Positions 17,735 through 54,570 of a stretch of 64,000 bases of DNA are shown in pieces (position 1 is the first letter of the stretch; every line of letters starts with the position of its first letter). The notes under the pieces are model-generated. The model ran no database searches, was not told the DNA's origin, and worked only from the letters and a program-made list of their open reading frames with translations. The stretch is from Candidatus Sericytochromatia bacterium (GTDB taxonomy: Bacteria > Cyanobacteriota > Sericytochromatia > UBA7694): positions 37,131-101,130 of the forward strand of contig CAXRDE010000005.1 of the NCBI GenBank assembly GCA_964229355.1. The letters run 5' to 3'. The translations under genes were made by a program, and so were the position numbers.

Positions 17735-19492
17735 ATGAGCACCCCCCATAAAGATCCATTGCGTGCCCTGGGCAGCAGGGTGCTGCGCCAAATTGCACGG
17801 CATTTAAAAATTAAGCATTATTACCGCAAATCCCCGTCTAAACTGCGTCGTGCCATTCATCGTGTCTGCGAGCGCCAGCACGGTCCCCAGGCTCTGGAAG
17901 CCATGAACCAATTGATACACCGCTTTCAGGGTGAAAGCACCGTCGAACCCCAAACCGGCCTGCAGGCTGCCGTCGAAGCCTTAAGGGATCCCCTGGCCTT
18001 GCCCCCACTCCCGCCCCCTGCATCACCCCCTCTCAAAAAGCCCCTGAAAAACATTCAGGCCCTCGAAGACCAAATCGAAGCCCGTCGCGCTGCCGAACGT
18101 AAAGCCATTGAAGAACACCGCCTGCGCTACCTCTTTAGCCCCTCTCAATTTGTGCACAAAGGCACTCACGAAGAATATATCTTAGAAAAAGACGAAGACA
18201 TCGAATTGCCCGACTACTACGCCGAACAAGAGCTGGTGGCGCTGCCTATTGACCCTTATCGCTACTACGTTTACTGGGATTTTGATACGCCCTTACAGGC
18301 TGAAGTCGAGAGCCTCATGAAACAGGCCCCGGACGTTTTTATGCTCAAGGTGTCCGATGTCACCGGCATTCAGTACACCGGAGACAACGCCCTGGCGGTG
18401 AGTTGGGAGCCCTGTAATCCGCTGATCAAGGAGTGGTATCTCAATACAGACTGGCACGATCGCCATGTGTGTGTCGAACTGGGTCACCGTCATGCCAAAG
18501 GCTTTAAAGTCCTTTTGCGCTCGAACGTAATCCACATTCCACCCGCAAGCGTCTCATCGGTGCGTTTGGATCGCTTTGCTGAGTTTGTGCCCGCACAACC
18601 CGTGGCTACCGACCGCATTGTCACCGAAGAGCCACAGCTCAGTACCAGCCAGGTGCCCATAGAAACTGCGGCTCAGGAGCTGGTGGGCGCTTTCTTCGAA
18701 AGCTACACCCCCACACCGGTGCAGTTTAACCCCATCCCGCCTGCCCGCAGCAGCGAAGCACGTCCTGTAGCCTCCCCACCACAGCCTGTCCAGCGTGTAG
18801 CCCCCCCTGCGCCTCAGGCTACCGCACCCGCAGAACACACTCCAACACCTGCAGCACCGCCCGTCATTCACTGGCGTCCTGCGCCCAGCCGCGCGGTGTT
18901 CTTAAAGCCCCCAGAACCCACAAAGGCCGAGCAAAGCCCTGAGCAAGCGCCGGCAACCCCTCAGTTGATGCCTACACAAGGCATGGATACCCACGAAACC
19001 GAACACTGGCTCAGCACCGCCGGGGGTCAACACATCCAGCAATGGCTGGGTCTGCCCTACGACGTGCGCTGGTTCAGCGACTTCCCCGCTGAGGCCCTCC
19101 CGCTCATGTTTGAACAGTGGATCACCGATCCTTACGATCAGGCCCTGATGATTTCTTACGCCATTTGGCCCTGGGAAGTCACCGAATATCTGCCGCTGGG
19201 GGCCAGCGACTGGACACTACAGAAATTCCTGGGGGCCAGTTTATTCAGCTGGTTTAGACCCGCAGGCAGTGAGCGCATGATCCGTTGGCAGACCCAACCC
19301 GGCGGCAGTGAAAAAATCCACTGGCTACGTCCTCAGGGTGCTTCCGAACAGCACTGGTCGGGCAGCTTACAGCCCCTACGCGCCCAGAGCGCCCACCCCT
19401 GGGAAAGCTGGCCACCCGCACCGCCACAGCCAGTCCCCTCGACGCCGCCCGCGCTGTCGCTGGCTTCAGGAAGCGGGTATTTTCGCGCATGA
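17735..19492 (+). CDS. Rho_N / DUF4912-like proline-rich protein
   Basis: N-terminal LRALGSRVLRQIARHLKIKHYYRKSPSKLRRAI is a Rho-N-like motif; Pro-rich linker. Translationally coupled (ATGA) to the GH57 gene, the usual DUF4912 context. GGAG RBS 9 nt upstream of the ATG at 17735. Confidence 0.5.
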   Translation: MSTPHKDPLRALGSRVLRQIARHLKIKHYYRKSPSKLRRAIHRVCERQHGPQALEAMNQLIHRFQGESTVEPQTGLQAAVEALRDPLALPPLPPPASPPLKKPLKNIQALEDQIEARRAAERKAIEEHRLRYLFSPSQFVHKGTHEEYILEKDEDIELPDYYAEQELVALPIDPYRYYVYWDFDTPLQAEVESLMKQAPDVFMLKVSDVTGIQYTGDNALAVSWEPCNPLIKEWYLNTDWHDRHVCVELGHRHAKGFKVLLRSNVIHIPPASVSSVRLDRFAEFVPAQPVATDRIVTEEPQLSTSQVPIETAAQELVGAFFESYTPTPVQFNPIPPARSSEARPVASPPQPVQRVAPPAPQATAPAEHTPTPAAPPVIHWRPAPSRAVFLKPPEPTKAEQSPEQAPATPQLMPTQGMDTHETEHWLSTAGGQHIQQWLGLPYDVRWFSDFPAEALPLMFEQWITDPYDQALMISYAIWPWEVTEYLPLGASDWTLQKFLGASLFSWFRPAGSERMIRWQTQPGGSEKIHWLRPQGASEQHWSGSLQPLRAQSAHPWESWPPAPPQPVPSTPPALSLASGSGYFRA

Positions 19493-21120
19493 AGTTCAAT
19501 TTTCAATTGCCTGAAATGGAGCCCATCGGCTATCACGCCATGGTGCTCCACGCCCACTTGCCCTATGTGCGCCACCCGGAATACGACTACTTTCTCGAAG
19601 AACACTGGCTCTACGAAGCCATTACCGAAACCTATGTGCCCCTGTTGGTCATGTTTGAAAACCTCGTCAAAGATGGCATTGACTTCCGCCTGACCATGAC
19701 CATGACGCCCTCTTTGTTGGCCATGCTGGCGGATCCGCTCTTGCAAGATCGCTACCTGGTCTATATTGGCCGTCTGGTAGAACTGGCCGAAAAAGAAGTG
19801 GTCCGCACCCGCGGCGATAGCCAGTTTCACCCCCTGGCCCTGTACTATGCGGATCGTTTTAAGGCCACCTATACCTTGTTTAACGACACTTACCACCGCA
19901 ATTTGGTGGACGGCTTTAAAAAGTTCCAGGACTACGGCTGTTTGGAAATCGTCACCTGCTGCGCCACCCACGGCTTTTTGCCCCTGTTTCAAATGTACCC
20001 TGAAGCGGTACAGGCCCAGGTAGAAGTGGCCGCCCAGAGTTATCGCAAGCATTTTGACCGCTCTCCCCGCGGCATTTGGCTGGCCGAGTGTGGCTTTTAT
20101 CCGGGTGCTGACCGCTTCTTAAAGCAAGCGGGCATTGAGTTCTTTTTTACCGACACCCACGGCATTGTCAACTCCACGCCCCGCTCACGTTACGGGGCCT
20201 ATGCTCCCATTTTCTGCCCCGATACCGGCGTGGCCGTGTTCTGTCGCGATCGCGAATCTTCAGAACAGGTGTGGAGCTCTGAAGTGGGTTATCCCGGAGA
20301 CCACTATTTTCGGGAATACTACCGAGACATTGGCTATGACTTAGACTTTGACTATATCAAAGACTATGTACAGCCCGATGGCACCCGCAAAAACACCGGC
20401 ATTAAGTATTATCGGGTGACGGGTAAAACCGCTGAAAAGCAGCCCTATAACTTAGAAATGGCCCGCCAAAAAAGCGATATCTACGCCAGCCACTTTGTGC
20501 GCAGCCGCGCCGAGCAGCTCACCAATCTGGCCCATGTGTTCGCAGGTCATAAACCCCTGGTGTTATCGCCCTATGACGCAGAACTGTACGGGCACTGGTG
20601 GTTTGAAGGTCCTGAATGGCTGAATTTGGTCATGCGCAAAGCCGCCCACAACCAGTCCACCTATAAAATGACCACGCCCTACGAGTACTTGCTCAACAAC
20701 CCCACCCAACAGGTGGCCGAGCCGTCACCTTCAAGCTGGGGTGCCAACGGTTATAACAGCTTCTGGCTCAACGAAACCAACGACAAAATCTACCGTCACC
20801 TGCATAAGGCCACCGAGCGCATGATCGAACTGGCCTACCGTTTTCCTGAAACCGAGGGCATTACCGAGCGCGCCTTAAATCAGGCGGCCCGTGAACTGTT
20901 ATTGGCCCAGAGCTCTGACTGGCCCTTTATTATGAAAACGGGCACCATGGTGGAATATGCCGTCAAACGGGTCAAGACCCACCTGTACCGTTTTAACCAG
21001 CTGTACCAGGGCATTTACCGTCAAGAAATTGACCCCGAATGGCTCACCAAGGTGGAGTATTTAGACAATATCTTCCCGGATATTGACTACAGCGTCTACC
21101 GTCTCAAAAGGGCCGCGTAA
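19489..21120 (+). CDS. glycoside hydrolase family 57 (1,4-alpha-glucan branching enzyme type)
   Basis: GYHAMVLHAHLPYVRHPE N-terminal motif and overall GH57/DUF1957 architecture; 543 aa. Confidence 0.8.
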   Translation: MKFNFQLPEMEPIGYHAMVLHAHLPYVRHPEYDYFLEEHWLYEAITETYVPLLVMFENLVKDGIDFRLTMTMTPSLLAMLADPLLQDRYLVYIGRLVELAEKEVVRTRGDSQFHPLALYYADRFKATYTLFNDTYHRNLVDGFKKFQDYGCLEIVTCCATHGFLPLFQMYPEAVQAQVEVAAQSYRKHFDRSPRGIWLAECGFYPGADRFLKQAGIEFFFTDTHGIVNSTPRSRYGAYAPIFCPDTGVAVFCRDRESSEQVWSSEVGYPGDHYFREYYRDIGYDLDFDYIKDYVQPDGTRKNTGIKYYRVTGKTAEKQPYNLEMARQKSDIYASHFVRSRAEQLTNLAHVFAGHKPLVLSPYDAELYGHWWFEGPEWLNLVMRKAAHNQSTYKMTTPYEYLLNNPTQQVAEPSPSSWGANGYNSFWLNETNDKIYRHLHKATERMIELAYRFPETEGITERALNQAARELLLAQSSDWPFIMKTGTMVEYAVKRVKTHLYRFNQLYQGIYRQEIDPEWLTKVEYLDNIFPDIDYSVYRLKRAA

Positions 21121-21122
21121 CC

Positions 21123-22118
21123 ATGCAAGCCGTGCCGCTCAAGATTCTGGGTATGGGCAAATATCTGCCGCCCCGTCAGGTACTGTCATCGGATTTGGAA
21201 GTACGTATGGGCCTGAAACCCGGCTGGATAGCCAGCAAATCCGGGGTCGAAGTCCGCCACTGGGCCGAACACGAAAGCAATGCAGAGCTGGGGGCTCAGG
21301 CCCTGAACGAGGCCTTACACAATGCCGGGCTGGTCTATGAAGACCTGGATTTAATTATCAACGCGTCCGGCTCCTATGATCATCCCATTCCCGATACCTC
21401 ATGCCTGATTCAACGGGCCATGGGCAAAGGGCGCTCCGGCATTCCCAGCTTTACCGTGGACGCCACCTGCTTAAGCTTTATTGCCGCGTTAGATGTAGCT
21501 GCAAGCTTTTTGGCCTCAGGTCGCTACCAGCGCATTGCCATTGTCTCTGCCGAAATCGCCTCCCGTTCGCTGAATCTTGAAGAAAAAGAGAGTGCCAGCT
21601 TACTGGGCGATGGCGCCGCCGCAGCCATTGTGGGTCTGCCAGAAGTGGGTGAGACCTCAGCCTTTTTGCAAAGTCGCTTAGAAACCTATGGTGATGGGGC
21701 CATGTACACCTATGTCAAAGGCGGCGGCAATGTGCTGCACCCCAACGACACCCAGGGAGATCCTGCAGACTTTACCTTTCACATGGATGGGCCCAAAGTG
21801 CTGGGCATGGCCTTTAAATACCTGCGTCCTTTTTTAAAAACCCTCTTTCGTCCGCTGGGCTTTACCCTGAGAGACTGTGACTTTATTGTGCCTCACCAGG
21901 CCAGTCAGGGCGCCATCGATACAGCCCAGCGCCTGTTTCGTTGGCGCGAAGACCAGTTCATTAACCACCTGGCCACCCACGGCAATTGCATTGCGGCCTC
22001 CATTCCCATGGCCCTGTACGATGCCATTCAACAGGGCCGTATTCAGCGGGGCCATCGGGTGTGCCTTTTGGGTACCGGCGCGGGCCTGTCGATTGGTGGC
22101 CTGGTGTTTGTGTACTAA
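21123..22118 (+). CDS. 3-oxoacyl-ACP synthase III (FabH-like KAS III) family protein
   Basis: Cys-His-Asn triad context: SFTVDATCLSFIAALDVA, IVPHQASQGAID, GNCIAASIPMAL; 331 aa. Confidence 0.8.
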   Translation: MQAVPLKILGMGKYLPPRQVLSSDLEVRMGLKPGWIASKSGVEVRHWAEHESNAELGAQALNEALHNAGLVYEDLDLIINASGSYDHPIPDTSCLIQRAMGKGRSGIPSFTVDATCLSFIAALDVAASFLASGRYQRIAIVSAEIASRSLNLEEKESASLLGDGAAAAIVGLPEVGETSAFLQSRLETYGDGAMYTYVKGGGNVLHPNDTQGDPADFTFHMDGPKVLGMAFKYLRPFLKTLFRPLGFTLRDCDFIVPHQASQGAIDTAQRLFRWREDQFINHLATHGNCIAASIPMALYDAIQQGRIQRGHRVCLLGTGAGLSIGGLVFVY

Positions 22119-22133
22119 ATTCATGGCGGGCTT

Positions 22134-23324
22134 ATGAACATCTTGTTTACCGGTGGGCGCAGCCCCGCCACCCTGGCCCTTGTACGCCGCTTTGCCGAAG
22201 CGGGCCACCGTTGTGATGTGGCCGAGAGTCTGCAACCCAACCTGGCGGGTGCCTCTCGGGCCTGTGCCAAAAACTTTACGGTGCCCGCCCCCCGTCAGCA
22301 CACCGCCGCTTACCTGCGGGCCCTGCAAGCCATTATTATCGACCGGGATATTGCCCTGGTGATTCCCACCTGCGAAGAAACCTTTTACATTGCCCGACAC
22401 CGTGAACTGCTCGAAGGCACGGGCAAGGGTTGTGAAGTGTTTACGCCGGACATGGCCTGTCTCGAAGAACTGCACAGCAAATACCAGTTTAACCAATTGT
22501 TACAGCGTCTCAAACTGCCAGCCCCCGCCACCGAGCGCATTTGCGATCGGGCGCATCTCAAACGGCGTTTGCCCGAGTGGGGACAATACGTGCTCAAGGG
22601 TGAATACTCCCGTTTTGCCAGCGCGGTGTATATTAACGCGCCCTTGCACAAGGTGTACCAAAACATTCAACCCAGCCCCAGCACCCCCTGGGTTTTGCAA
22701 GAGTTTTTAAACGGCCCCCAGTTTTGTTCGTATAGCGTGGCCCGCCAGGGTGAACTCACCGCACACAGTGTCTACCCCACGGTCTACACCGCCGGTACCG
22801 GTGCCACCATTTACTTTGAATCGGTAGATATTCCCGAAATTGAACACATTGTGCGGGCCATTGTCAGCTATTTTGGCTATACGGGCCAAATTTCCTTTGA
22901 TTTTATCTTGCATAAGGGCCTCTACTACGCCATTGAATGCAATCCCCGCACCACCACCGGCACCTTTTTGTTTGCCAAAGAAGACGCCCTGCCCGGCGCT
23001 TTTTTGCCCATAAACCCCGGTGAAACCGCCCCACGACTCGCCAGACCCCTGGCCCGCCAGCCCGTGGCCCTGAGCATTGCCATGCTCGGTTATGCCATTC
23101 CCCAGAGCCCCTGGAAAACCCCCCGCATTCTCAAAGATCTGTGGCGGGCCCACGATCCCTTGATGGAATGGCAAGATCCCGGCCCCTTTTGGCAACAGTT
23201 TGGCATGATCTTTCAAACCCTGCAACGGGCCAAAAAAGCAGGTACTGACTTGCTTTCTGCCAGTACCCTCGATATTGAATGGAATGGCGAAAACTGTGCA
23301 TTGGACACCAAGCAAGAACCCTAA
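22134..23324 (+). CDS. ATP-grasp domain protein
   Basis: Rossmann-like N-terminus MNILFTGGRSPATLALVRRFAEAGH; central YVLKGEYSRFASAVY and FLNGPQFCSYSV and C-terminal YAIECNPRTT resemble an ATP-grasp fold. 16 bp downstream of the KAS-III gene. Confidence 0.6.
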   Translation: MNILFTGGRSPATLALVRRFAEAGHRCDVAESLQPNLAGASRACAKNFTVPAPRQHTAAYLRALQAIIIDRDIALVIPTCEETFYIARHRELLEGTGKGCEVFTPDMACLEELHSKYQFNQLLQRLKLPAPATERICDRAHLKRRLPEWGQYVLKGEYSRFASAVYINAPLHKVYQNIQPSPSTPWVLQEFLNGPQFCSYSVARQGELTAHSVYPTVYTAGTGATIYFESVDIPEIEHIVRAIVSYFGYTGQISFDFILHKGLYYAIECNPRTTTGTFLFAKEDALPGAFLPINPGETAPRLARPLARQPVALSIAMLGYAIPQSPWKTPRILKDLWRAHDPLMEWQDPGPFWQQFGMIFQTLQRAKKAGTDLLSASTLDIEWNGENCALDTKQEP

Positions 23325-23404
23325 GGGGTGCTATGCTGTGAACAAGAGACACTCAATATTTTTATTTTTTCTTACTATTTTTGTACACATAAGGAATCAG
23401 TTAC

Positions 23405-24346
23405 ATGACACCACTGGTTAGCATTAAAGTTTTCGGCGTTGGCGGCAGCGGCGGAAACACGATTAATCATATGCGCGCTGCCGCCTTTGAAGGGGTTGAG
23501 TTTATTGCGGTCAATACCGATGCTCAGGCCCTCTCCATGGTGGACGCTCAAGAACGCCTGCAAATTGGCGGCAAAGGCACCCGCGGCTTAGGCGCGGGCG
23601 GAAACCCCGAAGTGGGCATGAAAGCCTTTGAAGAAAGCCGTGAAGAAATCAGTCATTATTTACAAGACACCGACATGGTGTTTGTCACCTGCGGCATGGG
23701 CGGCGGTACCGGTACCGGCGCAGGCCCAGCCCTGGCCGAAATGGCCAAATCCATGGGCGCTTTGACCGTGGGCGTGGTGACCCGTCCCTTTATGTTCGAA
23801 GGCAAACGTCGCAAAGAACAAGCCGATGCAGGCATTCAGCGCATGCTCAACGCCGTGGATACCCTGATTGTGGTCTCCAACGACCGCTTGCTGCAAAGCA
23901 TGAAAGGCGGCCTGGCCGTTAAGAATGCCTTCCAGGAAGTGGACAACGTATTGTTGCAAGCCATTCAGGGCATTTCAGACATCATTAACATCCCCGGTTT
24001 GATTAACGTGGACTTCGCCGACGTGCGCGCCATTATGAGCGACGCAGGCGTGGGCGTAATGGGCGTGGGCGTCAGTTCCATGGATGTGGAAAACCCAGCC
24101 GTCGAAGCCGTTAAAAAAGCCATCGAAAACCCCTTGCTGGAGTACTCCATCGATGGTGCCACCGGCGTGGTCTTCAACATCACCAGCGGTCAGGACGTTT
24201 CTCTGCACGAAATCAACGAAGCAGCGGAAGTCATTTACAACACCGTCAACCCCGATGCCAACGTTATTTTTGGTACCGTCCTTGACGAAAACATGCGCGA
24301 TCAGGTCAAAGTGACCGTCATTGCCATTGTGGGCCGTCATTTATAA
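23405..24346 (+). CDS. ftsZ: FtsZ (tubulin-like GTPase) lacking the C-terminal linker/tail
   Basis: GGGTGTG signature, T7 loop NDRLL, high collinearity with FtsZ core. Ends right after the core (..[11 protein letters not shown]). RBS aaggaa upstream. Confidence 0.85.
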
Positions 24347-24374
24347 GATCTTAACCGTCTAAGATAAGCAGAAA

Positions 24375-24408
24375 AGCCACGAATCTCTCAAGAATTCGTG
24401 GCTTTTTC
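24375..24408. terminator. bidirectional rho-independent terminator
   Basis: Perfect 9-bp stem gccacgaat/attcgtggc, then TTTTT on the plus strand and an A/T run on the minus strand. Lies between convergent ftsZ and the attH-like gene. Confidence 0.7.
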
Positions 24409-47377: not shown

Positions 47378-48592
47378 ATGGCCTCAATTTCTTCGGGTAC
47401 AAGCCCTTTAAGTCCGCTATCCGCTCAAACCTTGCGCCCGACAGAAAGTGCTACGCAATCCACAGCTCCTCCATCCGCTATCGCTGAAACACCCCCCCAG
47501 GCCGAAACACAAGATCAAGTGGCCGTACAAGCCAATCTCGAAGGGGCAGACTTTCACCCCACTGCAGGCGGCACGTTTCCTGATGCCGCTGCCGCAGCAG
47601 CGCCCGAAATCGAACTGCCCTCCCTGGATGATCCCGTTACGGGTGTTTTGCGGGGTGAGGCCCTGGAGGGCCGACTCAAAGCCCTGCAGCAAGAAATAGG
47701 CACCCAACTCAGCGCCGCCCAGGAACGTCATGCCACAGCCATTAGTAATGTCGAAACCAGCGGCATCCGTGATGACTTGCTCAATGAAGTCCTGAAACAT
47801 CAACACGCCATCGACACGCTCACCCAAATGCAAACCCTGTTGGAGCGAGGCGATCACGATGCGGTCAAACAATTGCAAGCCCTCATTAAAAGCTCGGCGA
47901 TTGATGAAGCCACAGGTAAAAATATCGACGTAGATAATCACTATGGTCCCGGTACCGATCGCCTCGCTGTGGAGCGCATCCGTCAACCGGACAGCACTTA
48001 CGTTGACAAAAATTTTAACTATGAACCCAAAGAGGCTTTTGTCTATCAATACGGCGAGATCGGCGAGGACGGCGGCACCAGCATGGAAGCTCAGGCCAAT
48101 TGTGGCCCTGCGTCCATGGCTATGGTCATTGAACGCCTGGGTGGCGACGCGCCCACCATGAAAGAAATTCGCCAGGAAGCCGGGGCACCCACGGGCAATC
48201 GCAAGGGCACTTACGGACTGGACTCAGACCAGGTGGAAAAAGGGCTGACAGAGATTTTGGGGAATCAGGGTATTCAAATTGAGACAGAGACACAGGTGTT
48301 TCGCAGCCGAGACAATGAAGGGGTTACCGAAGCCATGCGCGAGGCCCTGGCCGCAGGTAAAGAAGTCATTTTGCTGACGGCCAACCTCGAAAGCGGAGGT
48401 CAGGGACACTATATCGTCGTCAACGAAGTGCGTGAAGACGGGAGTATTGTCGTCGATGACCCACAGAACGAAGATGGACAGGGTCAGGTACATACCGCCG
48501 CAGAATTAGAGGCCGGTATGAAGCGGCGAGGCGGTTACGGCCGCGATACACGGGTGATTACTGTAAACCGGGCTACAGCCCCGGCTGCCTAG
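47378..48592 (+). CDS. protein with C-terminal C39-like (papain-fold) cysteine peptidase domain and a disordered N-terminus
   Basis: EAQANCGPASMAMVIERLGG (Cys) ... GQGHYIVVNEV (His) fit the Peptidase_C39_2 pattern. The N-terminal 120 aa are Ser/Thr/Pro/Ala/Gln-rich, with no signal peptide. Confidence 0.55.
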   Translation: MASISSGTSPLSPLSAQTLRPTESATQSTAPPSAIAETPPQAETQDQVAVQANLEGADFHPTAGGTFPDAAAAAAPEIELPSLDDPVTGVLRGEALEGRLKALQQEIGTQLSAAQERHATAISNVETSGIRDDLLNEVLKHQHAIDTLTQMQTLLERGDHDAVKQLQALIKSSAIDEATGKNIDVDNHYGPGTDRLAVERIRQPDSTYVDKNFNYEPKEAFVYQYGEIGEDGGTSMEAQANCGPASMAMVIERLGGDAPTMKEIRQEAGAPTGNRKGTYGLDSDQVEKGLTEILGNQGIQIETETQVFRSRDNEGVTEAMREALAAGKEVILLTANLESGGQGHYIVVNEVREDGSIVVDDPQNEDGQGQVHTAAELEAGMKRRGGYGRDTRVITVNRATAPAA

Positions 48593-51725: not shown

Positions 51726-52763
51726 CTAGCCCATAAATTTCGCCATCACCTGCTCAAATTGAGCCTGTGTGGGCCGTAAATCTTCAGTGGGCAACACAGA
51801 CAGTGGTGTCTCCGATAAATTCAGCACCTGATCAAAAGGTACTTTTTCATCGTTGTAATAGAGTAAGCCCGTGGGCAATTCACCCGCTTCATGGGTCAAT
51901 TTAATCTGACGCATGGCCTCTAAGCGATCCGTGGGGTCATAGTCATTGCCCAATTTTTTCAACTTCAGGTGAGAACCATCGTGCAGCTTAACATCTACTG
52001 CATCGGTGTAATCCACTTCAATATCGTCAAAATGGGGAATAAAATCCAACTCTTGCAGCGGTTGCTCATTGGCTTTGACGTAGTCATAGCTTTTGGTGGA
52101 GCCACTGTGATCGTTAAAGGTGACGCAGGGGCTAATAATGTCAATAATCGCCGTCCCCCGGTAAGACAAAGCAGCCTGAATCAAGGGCACCACTTGTTTT
52201 TTGTCACCCGAGAAGGAGCGGGCCACAAAACCACAGCCCAGTTCAATGGCCAGGCCACAGAGGTCGATGGGTTCAAAGGGGTTTTCGGCGCCCTTTTTGA
52301 GTACACTGCCCAAATCGGCCGTGGCAGAAAACTGGCCCTTGGTTAAACCATAGACCCCATTGTTTTCCACAATGTACACCATATCTAAATTGCGGCGAAT
52401 GACGTGCACAAATTGGCCAATTCCAATGCTGGCGGTATCGCCGTCGCCACTGACCGAGAGGCCTACCAATTGGTGGCTGGCCACCAGGGCGCCGGTGGTA
52501 ACAGAGGGCATACGGCCGTGGGCCGAGTTAAAGGCATGGGCCTGACTGACAAAGTAGGCGGGGGTTTTACTGGAACACCCAATCCCGCTGAATTTACCCA
52601 GCATGGCAGGATCTACACCCGCTTCATAACACGCCTGAATAATATGCCCCGAAATGGCATTGTGACCACAACCGGGACACAGGGTGGTGGGTCCCCCCTG
52701 GTAATCAGACTTGGCCAGACCCAGGTAATTGGTTTTTGCTTTTTTTGTAGATAAATTAGACAT
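51726..52763 (-). CDS. korB: 2-oxoglutarate/2-oxoacid:ferredoxin oxidoreductase beta subunit (two-subunit type)
   Basis: CPGCGHNAISGHI..., GIGCSSKTPAYF, VSGDGDTASIG TPP motifs. GGAGG RBS 7 nt upstream of the ATG at 52763. The ORF-track start at 52799 would overlap korA by 44 bp. Confidence 0.8.
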   Translation of the reverse strand: MSNLSTKKAKTNYLGLAKSDYQGGPTTLCPGCGHNAISGHIIQACYEAGVDPAMLGKFSGIGCSSKTPAYFVSQAHAFNSAHGRMPSVTTGALVASHQLVGLSVSGDGDTASIGIGQFVHVIRRNLDMVYIVENNGVYGLTKGQFSATADLGSVLKKGAENPFEPIDLCGLAIELGCGFVARSFSGDKKQVVPLIQAALSYRGTAIIDIISPCVTFNDHSGSTKSYDYVKANEQPLQELDFIPHFDDIEVDYTDAVDVKLHDGSHLKLKKLGNDYDPTDRLEAMRQIKLTHEAGELPTGLLYYNDEKVPFDQVLNLSETPLSVLPTEDLRPTQAQFEQVMAKFMG

Positions 52764-54570
52764 GAGCGACCTCCACAGGTACTGTTTGTTCAGATTCAAG
52801 AATCGCTTGACTTAAAGACAGGGCATCCACAAAGGTGCCATCGTAATGGGTGACCGGGCGCAAACGGGGTGCCAGCGCAGGGTATTCCGCGGCCAACAGA
52901 CGAAGCATTTGCGCATCGCGGTTTTGCTCCAGCACGTAAACCCGCTCCTGGGCTTCTAAAAAGGCCTCCACTTGCGGATGGAAGGGCAGCGCACGAATCC
53001 GCAGGTAATCGGGCTGTAAACCTTTGTCCTGCAATTGATCGAGCATTTCAGGCATGGCCGCATCGGTAGAGCCGTAGGCAATCACCGCAAAATCCGTGTG
53101 GCCGTCTCCCACTTGCAAGTGGGGGGCAGGCAGCGTCTTCGCAATGGTTTCAAACTTCTGGCTTAAGCGGTCCAGGCCGGCTTTCCATTCGTCGGGCTTC
53201 TCGGTGTATTTGGCCTGGGCATTGTGCCCTGATCCCCGTGTAAAGTAAGGGGCCTTGGCGTGTTTGGTGCCAGGCAGGGTACGGTAGGGCACGCCATCAC
53301 CATCCACATCAGCATAGCGATGGAACTGTTCCACCTGATCCAGGGCTGCCGCATCTAAAACTTTCCCCCGATCCAGCGGCTGGGTAGCGTAGCTAAAGGG
53401 CTCAGCCATCCAGGTATTCATACCCAGGTCCAGATCACTCAGCAAAAACACGAGGGTCTGAAAGCGTTCTGCCAGGTCAAAGGCATCCTGAGCCATGGTG
53501 TAGCACTCTTCAACGGTGCCGGGCAACAGCACAATATGTTGGGTATCGCCATGAGAGAGACCATAGGCAGAAGTTAAATCGCCCTGGGAGTTGCGGGTGG
53601 GCAAGCCGGTGCTGGGGCCCATGCGCTGTACATCCACAATCACGCTGGGAATCTCGGCATAATAGGCGTAGCCCGCTAATTCTGACATCAGCGAAATCCC
53701 GGGGCCTGAGGTGGCCGTCATGGCGCGGGCACCGGCCCAACCAGCCCCCAGCACCATGCCTATGGCCGCAATTTCGTCTTCAGCCTGTACGGCGGCATAG
53801 AGATTTTTGCCGTCTTTGACCCGAAACGCGCCAAAGTAATCGATCAGGCTTTCGCATACCGAGCTAGAGGGGGTAATCGGGTACCACGACAGAAAAGTAC
53901 AGCCCCCCATCAGGGCGCCCAGGGCGGTGGCATTATTGCCTTCAATCAGAATTTTGCCCTCGGTGGCACCGGGAATGGTTTCGAGCACAAAGGGATCTTG
54001 CTTGGTCAAATGTTCAGCGGCCCAATCCCGTCCTACTGCAATGGCATGGGCGTTTAATTGCACGACTTTTTCTTTGTTGGCAAATTGTTTATTGACCGCC
54101 TGGGTAATGGCCGCAGGGTCAATATTGAGTAAATGCGCCAATACCCCCACGTAGATCATATTCACCACTTTTTTCTTGAGCTTGGCATTGTCCGTGGCCT
54201 GGTTCACCAGCTCCCCGAAGGGCACCCCGTAATTGATGTGGTCTTCACGCAGGGCGTGATCCAGTTTCATGCCTGTGTCGTGAATGACCACCGCACCGGC
54301 GCGCAGGCCCCGGATGTCGTCATACACCGTATTGGGGTTCATGAGCACCATGATATCGCAGGCCTGTTGGTTGGCCTGGTAGCCTTTTTCGTGCACCCGT
54401 ACCGTGTACCAGGTGGGTAAGCCGGCGATATTTGAGGGAAAGAGATTTTTTGCCGCCACGGGCACGCTCATGTTAAAAATAGAGCGCATTAAAATCAGGT
54501 TGGCGGACTGACTGCCCGTCCCATTGACCGTGGCAATTTGAATATTCACATTATTGACTTGTTGTTCCAC
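52756..54570 (-). CDS. korA: 2-oxoglutarate/2-oxoacid:ferredoxin oxidoreductase alpha subunit (fused gamma-alpha, KorA type)
   Basis: 604 aa; N-terminal gamma-like IATVNGTGSQSANLILMRSIF, then the alpha domain GNNATALGALMGGCTFLSWYPITPSS. Confidence 0.8.
   Translation of the reverse strand: MEQQVNNVNIQIATVNGTGSQSANLILMRSIFNMSVPVAAKNLFPSNIAGLPTWYTVRVHEKGYQANQQACDIMVLMNPNTVYDDIRGLRAGAVVIHDTGMKLDHALREDHINYGVPFGELVNQATDNAKLKKKVVNMIYVGVLAHLLNIDPAAITQAVNKQFANKEKVVQLNAHAIAVGRDWAAEHLTKQDPFVLETIPGATEGKILIEGNNATALGALMGGCTFLSWYPITPSSSVCESLIDYFGAFRVKDGKNLYAAVQAEDEIAAIGMVLGAGWAGARAMTATSGPGISLMSELAGYAYYAEIPSVIVDVQRMGPSTGLPTRNSQGDLTSAYGLSHGDTQHIVLLPGTVEECYTMAQDAFDLAERFQTLVFLLSDLDLGMNTWMAEPFSYATQPLDRGKVLDAAALDQVEQFHRYADVDGDGVPYRTLPGTKHAKAPYFTRGSGHNAQAKYTEKPDEWKAGLDRLSQKFETIAKTLPAPHLQVGDGHTDFAVIAYGSTDAAMPEMLDQLQDKGLQPDYLRIRALPFHPQVEAFLEAQERVYVLEQNRDAQMLRLLAAEYPALAPRLRPVTHYDGTFVDALSLSQAILESEQTVPVEVAHV

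Follow-up and report, generated by a model that had tools for sequence, protein, structure and literature searches.

A short, tail-less FtsZ of Candidatus Sericytochromatia, supported as a second FtsZ beside the canonical division protein

The 64,000-nucleotide stretch of Candidatus Sericytochromatia DNA considered here (contig CAXRDE010000005.1 of assembly GCA_964229355.1, referred to below as the window) carries on its forward strand, at positions 23405..24346 including the stop codon, an ATG-initiated gene coding for a tail-less FtsZ of 313 amino acid residues, made up of the GTPase domain and the FtsZ_C domain only. The Candidatus Sericytochromatia are non-photosynthetic relatives, and a sister lineage, of the cyanobacteria. 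Comparison with related genomes supports the view that this short ftsZ is a second copy, which occurs beside a full-length, tailed FtsZ in the same genomes and, as judged from its relatives, in the genome of the window itself. A preliminary description of the DNA had drawn attention to the gene.

The short FtsZ matches the Pfam families Tubulin (PF00091, 1.1e-47) and FtsZ_C (PF12327, 1.7e-29), and it scores 399 bits against the NCBIfam equivalog TIGR00065 ftsZ, more than 100 bits clear of the cutoff of 295. This match covers profile positions 18-321 out of 353 and, since it ends at position 321, both the linker and the tail are missing. Similarly, residues 11-312 of the FtsZ of B. subtilis (2VAM), which represent the crystallographic core, align to the full length of the short protein (E = 2.7e-106). 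In a 20-sequence alignment (A1), the canonical FtsZs run beyond the ...VIATGF segment into a variable linker and a tail of the LDIPxFLRRR type, whereas the short FtsZ and its clade stop, with 6 residues between the last core strand and the C-terminus. Neither a counterpart of the LDIPxFLRRR or LELPPFLQPRR tails nor an N-terminal extension occurs in the short FtsZ in alignment A1. The profile span and the two alignments thus bear out the preliminary description, which had read an FtsZ ending at the core after 313 residues. The same description had found the polymerization motifs intact, and both are indeed readable in the sequence and in the alignments: the tubulin signature (G-box) GGGTGTG, residues 99-105 (23699..23719, forward strand), is invariant in 27 out of 27 protein clusters of the short clade, and the T7 synergy loop NVDFAD, residues 201-206 (24005..24022, forward strand), has N201, D203 and D206 in invariant columns of alignments A1 and A2. 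The T7 loop of FtsZ gives catalytic residues to the adjacent subunit within the filament. The short FtsZ shares 55-59% identity with cyanobacterial and Firmicute FtsZs (57-59% between the short clade and the cyanobacterial FtsZ core) and, because it also passes the TIGR00065 cutoff, its assignment to the divergent FtsZ-like families (FtsZl-1/FtsZl-2, TubZ, CetZ) was rejected. It is a member of the FtsZ family devoid of the two traits that define the canonical division FtsZ, i.e., the tail and the location in the cluster of genes for division and the cell wall (dcw), and it displays the testable characters of the truncated accessory FtsZ paralogues.

One and the same 313-residue product was predicted in each of three runs that had been assembled independently (SRR30982337, SRR30982338 and SRR30982339), and a database search yielded 27 short-clade protein clusters of 67-96% identity, several of them labelled Candidatus Sericytochromatia. 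All 27 share the same end point, 19 of them counting exactly 313 residues, and the incomplete ones are interrupted where their contigs end. Compared to four orthologous genes, the short ftsZ exhibits a ratio of nonsynonymous to synonymous substitution rates (dN/dS) of 0.02-0.11, with dS ~1 and synonymous sites near saturation. The identity across three assemblies, the shared end and the low dN/dS indicate that the truncation is an old and selected feature of the clade. Judged from these comparisons, the short ftsZ is intact, is subject to strong purifying selection and has kept all of its GTP-binding and catalytic motifs. The possibility, initially envisaged, that a longer open reading frame (ORF) was cut short by a sequencing error or by a frameshift near its 3' end is discarded on account of the identical ORFs in the three assemblies and of the end point common to the clade.

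Among the nearest matches outside the short clade, a group of full-length FtsZs (P0032, P0047-P0049, P0056 and P0086) is devoid of the cyanobacterial N-terminal extension and possesses a Pro/Gln-rich linker followed by the tail LELPPFL(R/Q)P(H/R)R. A search with P0032 gave Candidatus Sericytochromatia and Candidatus Blackallbacteria as source names for this canonical group, which is widespread in the lineage (~29 or more clusters), shares 70-72% core identity with cyanobacterial FtsZ, and is encoded at the end of the gene order mraY-murD-ftsW-murG-murC-murB-ftsQ-ftsZ at loci L007, L009, L011, L018, L021 and L101. Two metagenome-assembled genomes (MAGs) contain both types. In CAYFGW01 (uncultured Candidatus Sericytochromatia bacterium), contig 13 (L020) encodes a short FtsZ of 313 residues, 96% identical to that of the window, and contig 52 (L021) an FtsZ of 444 residues ending with DQLELPPFLQPRR, with dcw genes before it; in JACYMC01 (GCA_015272195.1), the short P0010 is located on contig 23 (L098) and the canonical P0134 on contig 173 (L018). 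The canonical copies of these two MAGs consist of 444-453 residues and end with the tail LELPPFL(Q/R)P(R/H)R. A third pair comprises the short P0026 and the canonical P0032, each of which occurs in SRR14610174 and SRR14610220 and in no other run (L005/L006 with L007/L008). Paired short-gene and dcw contigs also agree in composition, with guanine plus cytosine (GC) contents of 51.2 vs 51.8% (tetranucleotide r = 0.95) in one case and 38.9 vs 38.5% (r = 0.96) in the other; a same-genome origin of the pairs is supported by the way in which the short-gene contig follows the dcw contig in spite of very different genome GC. The part of the preliminary description that saw in the gene a second FtsZ therefore holds, relatives of the window carrying the tailed dcw FtsZ too, but the specialized role that it attached to this copy goes beyond the evidence.

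The search for further pairs was limited in its reach. A scan of species-representative genomes, for which the short FtsZ and the canonical core made up the two parts of the query and which relied on six narrow peptide patterns, reached only the closest short-type genomes (L019, L020) and is unfit for counting the species with or without the paralogue. P0122 (Blackallbacteria, GCA_002783405.1) and P0022 do not belong to one assembly and add no same-assembly pair, and P0142, a canonical candidate for the window organism, comes from other samples. Full-text searches yielded no report of a dual FtsZ in Sericytochromatia, Blackallbacteria, Melainabacteria or Vampirovibrionia, and a survey of the phyla with two FtsZ copies does not list the Sericytochromatia lineage (PMC8178401).

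Some other features of the canonical proteins deserve mention. The dcw-cluster FtsZs (L018, L021, P0086, P0121-P0149) have GGGSGTG in place of GGGTGTG in 25 out of 29 clusters, to be compared with GGGTGTG in 27/27 for the tail-less paralogue. P0141 (404 residues) and P0136 are related full-length FtsZs that end with a different tail, DLDIPPFLQRYR. P0141 resides on an ENA contig of 5,178,848 bp, probably a closed genome, and no short-type cluster lists a contig of such size; the P0141 lineage is probably devoid of the tail-less paralogue, which suggests that the latter is confined to part of the class. Directly 3' of the canonical ftsZ, 4-5 tandem paralogous genes for B12-binding radical-SAM/methyltransferase proteins occur at L011 (10545-18991) and L012 (8344-16790), and also at L009 (12421-14739).

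Within one genome, the two copies share 56-59% identity. In a neighbour-joining tree built from 308 core columns with 100 bootstraps, the alphaproteobacterial paralogues being left out, the short clade is monophyletic in 100/100 bootstraps and borne by a long stem, and it is placed near the Cyanobacteria and Sericytochromatia with weak support; the canonical Sericytochromatia group joins the Cyanobacteria in 78/100. In 0/100 bootstraps did the short clade group with the canonical FtsZ of its own lineage which, together with the long stem, leaves a recent in-lineage duplication unsupported. The long stem corresponds either to an old origin or to an early burst of change (accelerated stem), which neighbour joining cannot separate. 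The branching of the short copies matches that of the canonical ones (window/L020 with L021/P0149, P0010/P0013 with P0134, and P0026 with P0032), and this mirrored branching fits a long co-inheritance of both. For the same three organism pairs, identities reach 85.7, 73.9 and 73.3% for the short copy vs 84.7, 78.2 and 82.8% for the canonical copy. The divergence of the short copy thus roughly equals or slightly exceeds that of the canonical copy and, given the similar divergence of both, the short copy is under a constraint comparable to that on an essential protein. The short clade is consistently distinguished from 31 canonical sequences at 14 positions, A26T, P165S, A224G, L225V, R236P, S247N and G266S (B. 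subtilis numbering) among them; none of the 14 belongs to the G-box or to the catalytic residues of T7.

The 120 nearest relatives of the short FtsZ comprise cyanobacterial and Firmicute FtsZs and no alphaproteobacterial sequence. By this comparison its origin is likely independent of the alphaproteobacterial truncated paralogues and, common descent with them being unlikely, it would represent a convergent case of this class of paralogues. A profile search of a library of representatives at 50% identity does not bear on more distant tail-less relatives, the short clade having no representative of its own in that library, where it is merged into a canonical cluster. The top library matches, P0235-P0237, are tandem or fused canonical FtsZs for which two domain scores were summed. 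Each of them, P0235 (840 residues), P0236 (826 residues) and P0237 (744 residues), contains two complete FtsZ domains in tandem; P0235, with an IPEFLRRR tail, looks bacterial- or plastid-like, P0236 and P0237 look archaeal, and all three may be either real fusions or merged gene calls.

The short ftsZ is flanked by signals of its own. An extended -10-like promoter element TGCTATGCT (TGnTAnnnT), recognized by comparison, occurs at 23329..23337 on the forward strand, 76 nucleotides before the ATG, in the 80-nucleotide gap that follows the upstream ATP-grasp gene. A single TGnTAnnnT is found in each of 7/7 short-ftsZ upstream regions of 240 nucleotides, 57-94 nucleotides before the ATG and whichever gene lies upstream; the motif was picked after the data had been viewed and is promoter-like by sequence only. 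A Shine-Dalgarno-like AAGGAA is read at 23391..23396 (forward strand), 8 nucleotides before the start codon, and AAGGA or TAAGG recurs in all but one of the 7 upstream regions, including the orthologous loci L019, L020, L001, L098 and L005. On the 3' side, a predicted intrinsic terminator at 24371..24407 (forward strand), consisting of a GC-rich hairpin of 16 bp that leads into a T-tract, begins 25 nucleotides past the stop codon and is followed by a convergent gene. The strong terminator announced by the preliminary description is well founded, as the RNA fold of the hairpin attains -22.9 kcal/mol (z = -4.5) with 0/200 shuffles as stable, even if a simple scanner for consensus terminators did not pick up the hairpin at 24371-24407. 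Similar hairpins occur 3' of the short ftsZ at most loci (L019, L020, L001, L003). Taking into account the promoter-like element, the Shine-Dalgarno-like site and the terminator hairpin, we infer that the short ftsZ is probably a self-contained monocistronic gene. The sequence TGTGCATTGGACAC occurs at 23295-23308 on the forward strand, ~20-35 nucleotides 5' of the promoter-like element, and also in L019, L020 and L098; it belongs to the last coding part of the ATP-grasp gene in the window, L019 and L020, is intergenic in L098, and takes the variant form GGTGCATCTGACAC in L001. This sequence may act as a site for a regulator of the short ftsZ, or be no more than conserved coding sequence.

Upstream of the short ftsZ, and on the same strand, are located a FabH-like ketosynthase gene (21123-22118), whose product is PRK07204-like (343 bits, below the cutoff of that model), and a gene for a PRK06849-like ATP-grasp protein (22134-23324). 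They are preceded at 17648-21120, also on the forward strand, by genes for a DUF4912 protein whose long C-terminal half is rich in Pro and for a GH57 1,4-alpha-glucan branching enzyme, with a 4-nucleotide overlap at the GH57 start, and this DUF4912/GH57 pair is found again in L001. A Pfam survey of ~45 large ORFs of the window revealed no fts, mur, sepF or ftsA gene apart from the short ftsZ itself and no magnetosome gene family, in agreement with the initial reading of an ftsZ that follows a FabH-like/ATP-grasp cassette and has no ftsA, ftsQ or mur neighbours; nor do dcw genes occur in the short-ftsZ contexts L001, L003-L006 and L098. The FabH-like and ATP-grasp genes form a tight pair in the window (21123-23324, forward strand), in L001 (7727-9867) and in L098 (5412-7557), and the trio that they build with ftsZ is kept in these three only, where the short proteins are at least 84% identical (84-85% in L001 and L098) and the outer flanks differ. 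The more distant clade members (L003/L004, L005/L006 and the P0022 contig) have wholly different neighbours, often on the opposite strand, which indicates a local synteny rather than a functional unit. That the short ftsZ forms a functional operon together with the FabH-like and ATP-grasp genes was therefore rejected as a general feature, its promoter-like element also counting against a shared operon, and the functional link to the cassette hinted at in the preliminary description is not supported, since the linkage is lost in the more distant members.

Other genes of the window are of interest for their own sake. An ORF of 828 residues at 30758-33244 (reverse strand) matches PF11978 (Major Vault Protein shoulder domain, 6e-30) and PF17795 (vault repeat domain, 2e-10); on the basis of these domains, its product is predicted to be a homologue, in a bacterium, of the protein that forms the shell of eukaryotic vaults. 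The reverse strand also encodes a TANGO2-family protein at 16806-17570 (PF05742, 1.2e-65) and an ARPP-2 domain protein at 8895-10046 (PF22549, 8.2e-58), two families whose function in bacteria is poorly understood. Two proteins with a C-terminal Peptidase_C39-like domain and devoid of an ABC transporter domain, encoded at 47378-48592 and 54774-56072 (forward strand), flank a 2-oxoacid:ferredoxin oxidoreductase alpha/beta pair (51726-54570, reverse strand).

By analogy with truncated paralogues studied elsewhere, the short FtsZ probably co-assembles with the canonical FtsZ and modulates the tail density and the dynamics of the ring. Devoid of a tail, it would be unable to bind the tail-dependent membrane anchors, and would get to the division site only by head-to-tail co-polymerization with the tailed FtsZ. 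Since FtsA is absent in the cyanobacterial lineage, the anchor to be expected is SepF; both the presence of SepF and the absence of FtsA are documented for Cyanobacteria and Melainabacteria (PMC8178401). Co-assembly would dilute the tails and linkers in the Z ring and thereby tune filament turnover, anchoring or the activation of the downstream divisome, so that the short FtsZ would act as a modulator of division and not as the scaffold itself. In the copies of one genome, the nucleotide-pocket and longitudinal-interface loops and helix H7 are 69-71% identical vs 49-52% for the rest of the protein, and loops T2, T3, T4 and T5 even reach 79-100%; such a likeness of the interface loops, as expected if both proteins still stack, makes co-assembly plausible.

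Several points weigh against this proposal. The evidence for co-polymerization consists of analogy and interface conservation, and co-assembly could suffer from the divergence of 41-44% from the presumed partner. It is in relatives (with a 96% identical short protein) that the canonical copy was observed, not in the genome of the window itself, and MAG bins can be contaminated, which makes the pairing within MAGs strong but not absolute. Moreover, the short clade never grouped with the canonical FtsZ of its lineage in the bootstraps, and seven core positions that are otherwise invariant, or nearly so, are switched in it (A26T, P165S, A224G, L225V, R236P, S247N and G266S, in B. subtilis numbering), which may point to a different activity. 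Finally, the FtsZm of Magnetospirillum illustrates that a tail-less paralogue is able to polymerize alone and to serve a process other than division (10.1101/412759).

This precedent leads to the best surviving alternative, in which the short FtsZ forms its own homopolymers, is recruited by a partner recognizing the core and takes part in a process distinct from septation, for example one concerned with cell shape, with a structure inside the cell, or with the metabolism of the envelope or of lipids. We consider it unlikely, albeit well worth keeping in mind. The intact polymerization and GTPase motifs, a constraint as tight as that on the canonical copy, the separate promoter-like element and terminator, and the altered surface suggested by the long stem and the switched core positions are all in keeping with it, as is the conservation of the FabH-like/ATP-grasp/ftsZ trio, despite differing flanks, in the subclade of at least 84% identity (window, L001, L098). 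However, no partner gene is conserved, the neighbours being all different in L003/L004, L005/L006 and the P0022 contig, the interface loops are still near those of the canonical copy, and both the FtsZ1 of Agrobacterium and that of chloroplasts work within the Z ring. A further possibility, to which we attach distinctly less weight, is that the short FtsZ is an ancient paralogue predating the split between Sericytochromatia and Cyanobacteria, or an old transfer, which now builds its own filament system through a remodelled core surface and a partner. Should this be true, part of the cyanobacterial radiation would ancestrally have possessed two FtsZs, in a system resembling the one that chloroplasts later re-invented.

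It is just as improbable that the short FtsZ is a conditional inhibitor of division, i.e., a poison subunit which, when induced in stress or non-growing states for example, would leave the Z ring with fewer tails or block the late activation of the divisome. Division is indeed blocked by overexpressed Agrobacterium FtsZ1, an effect that is partly relieved by a hyperactive FtsW (10.1101/2025.09.29.679267); in addition, a separate promoter-like element permits a regulation apart from the dcw operon. However, neither a regulator nor a stress-linked context is conserved around the gene, a constraint equal to that on the essential copy favours a constitutive structural role, and such an inhibitor would be a variant of the co-assembly proposal rather than a truly separate mechanism. 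The chance that the short protein is the sole FtsZ, anchored by a factor binding the core or by direct membrane contact, is very slight: no division gene accompanies it in the 64-kb window, the stretch of its own genome that the survey covered, but both copies occur in two MAGs, another pair is shared by two runs on contigs alike in composition, the widespread canonical type (~29 or more clusters) groups with cyanobacterial FtsZ, and the short protein has no terminal extension to serve as a membrane-targeting helix. The unusual tethering initially put forward is effectively refuted by the tailed dcw FtsZ of the relatives that carry the short gene. Least credible of all is an artefact, be it a truncated pseudogene, a 3' sequencing or assembly error or a contig mis-binned into Sericytochromatia MAGs, for although every sequence comes from metagenome assemblies and none from an isolate genome, the same ORF is present in three separate assemblies, its end point is constant in 27 clusters down to 67% identity, dN/dS is 0.02-0.11 at dS ~1 with a terminator directly 3', the GC of the short-gene contig tracks that of the dcw contig (~39% in one organism and 51-55% in others, r = 0.95-0.96), and the short and canonical phylogenies are congruent.

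Tail-less FtsZ paralogues have so far been studied almost exclusively in Alphaproteobacteria and plastids, and the short clade adds a well conserved and strongly selected case from the Sericytochromatia. The pair of short and canonical proteins represents a natural bacterial counterpart to the FtsZ1/FtsZ2 pair of chloroplasts and offers matched sequences for testing the effect of tail density in the Z ring. From a practical point of view, annotation pipelines name the short protein "cell division protein FtsZ", which could mislead the inference of the division machinery or the use of ftsZ as a single-copy marker in MAGs. No principle of cell division is altered by this unreported but unsurprising paralogue of an under-studied lineage.

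With respect to known systems, the canonical FtsZ (TIGR00065, including the dcw copy of Sericytochromatia) has the same core fold and motifs as the short FtsZ, but possesses a linker, a C-terminal peptide and a dcw location, all of which are missing in the short FtsZ, which displays clade-specific substitutions instead. Truncated FtsZ paralogues have several independent origins; at least five independent duplications across bacteria are cited, the paralogues being often truncated (10.1101/2025.09.29.679267). The closest likeness is offered by FtsZ1 of Agrobacterium tumefaciens and the truncated paralogues of the Rhizobiaceae and Phyllobacteraceae, including FtsZ2 of Sinorhizobium meliloti, which consist of the GTPase core only, without linker and C-terminal peptide. 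As in the case of the short FtsZ, paralogues of the Agrobacterium FtsZ1 type are encoded away from the dcw cluster, occur beside an essential full-length dcw FtsZ, and resemble each other across species more than they resemble the canonical FtsZ with which they share a genome, which suggests old and vertically kept duplicates. They belong to a different phylum, and their origin is apparently independent, since the nearest relatives of the short FtsZ outside its clade are cyanobacterial and Firmicute FtsZs. Agrobacterium FtsZ1, which ends with the GTPase domain, depends on the full-length FtsZ for its mid-cell localization and co-polymerizes with it but does not polymerize alone (10.1101/412759). 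This co-polymerization with, and dependence on, FtsZ_AT are demonstrated, whereas those of the short FtsZ are predicted; the anchors also differ, with FtsA and FzlA in Alphaproteobacteria vs a likely SepF-type anchor in the lineage of the short FtsZ.

The FtsZm of Magnetospirillum gryphiswaldense is likewise a tail-less protein of ~320 residues that occurs beside a generic full-length FtsZ; division does not require it, and an interaction with its generic homologue is likely (10.1101/412759). FtsZm is encoded in the magnetosome island (mamXY operon) and needed for biomineralization under certain conditions, whereas the short ftsZ has no magnetosome genes in the window and no conserved functional neighbourhood. 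The resemblance to FtsZm initially proposed is apt for the kind of protein, a tail-less paralogue. In chloroplasts, FtsZ1 (FtsZB in red algae) and FtsZ2 (FtsZA) form, as in the present case, a two-FtsZ system of the cyanobacterial radiation in which only one partner carries the anchor-binding peptide, and FtsZ1, which is devoid of it, increases the dynamics of the Z ring (10.1101/2025.09.29.679267). Unlike the short FtsZ, chloroplast FtsZ1 is encoded by a eukaryotic nuclear gene and has a C-terminal extension beyond the core, and no plant or algal sequence occurs among the nearest relatives of the short FtsZ. Since chloroplast FtsZ1 arose after endosymbiosis, its likeness to the short FtsZ of Sericytochromatia is a convergent one.

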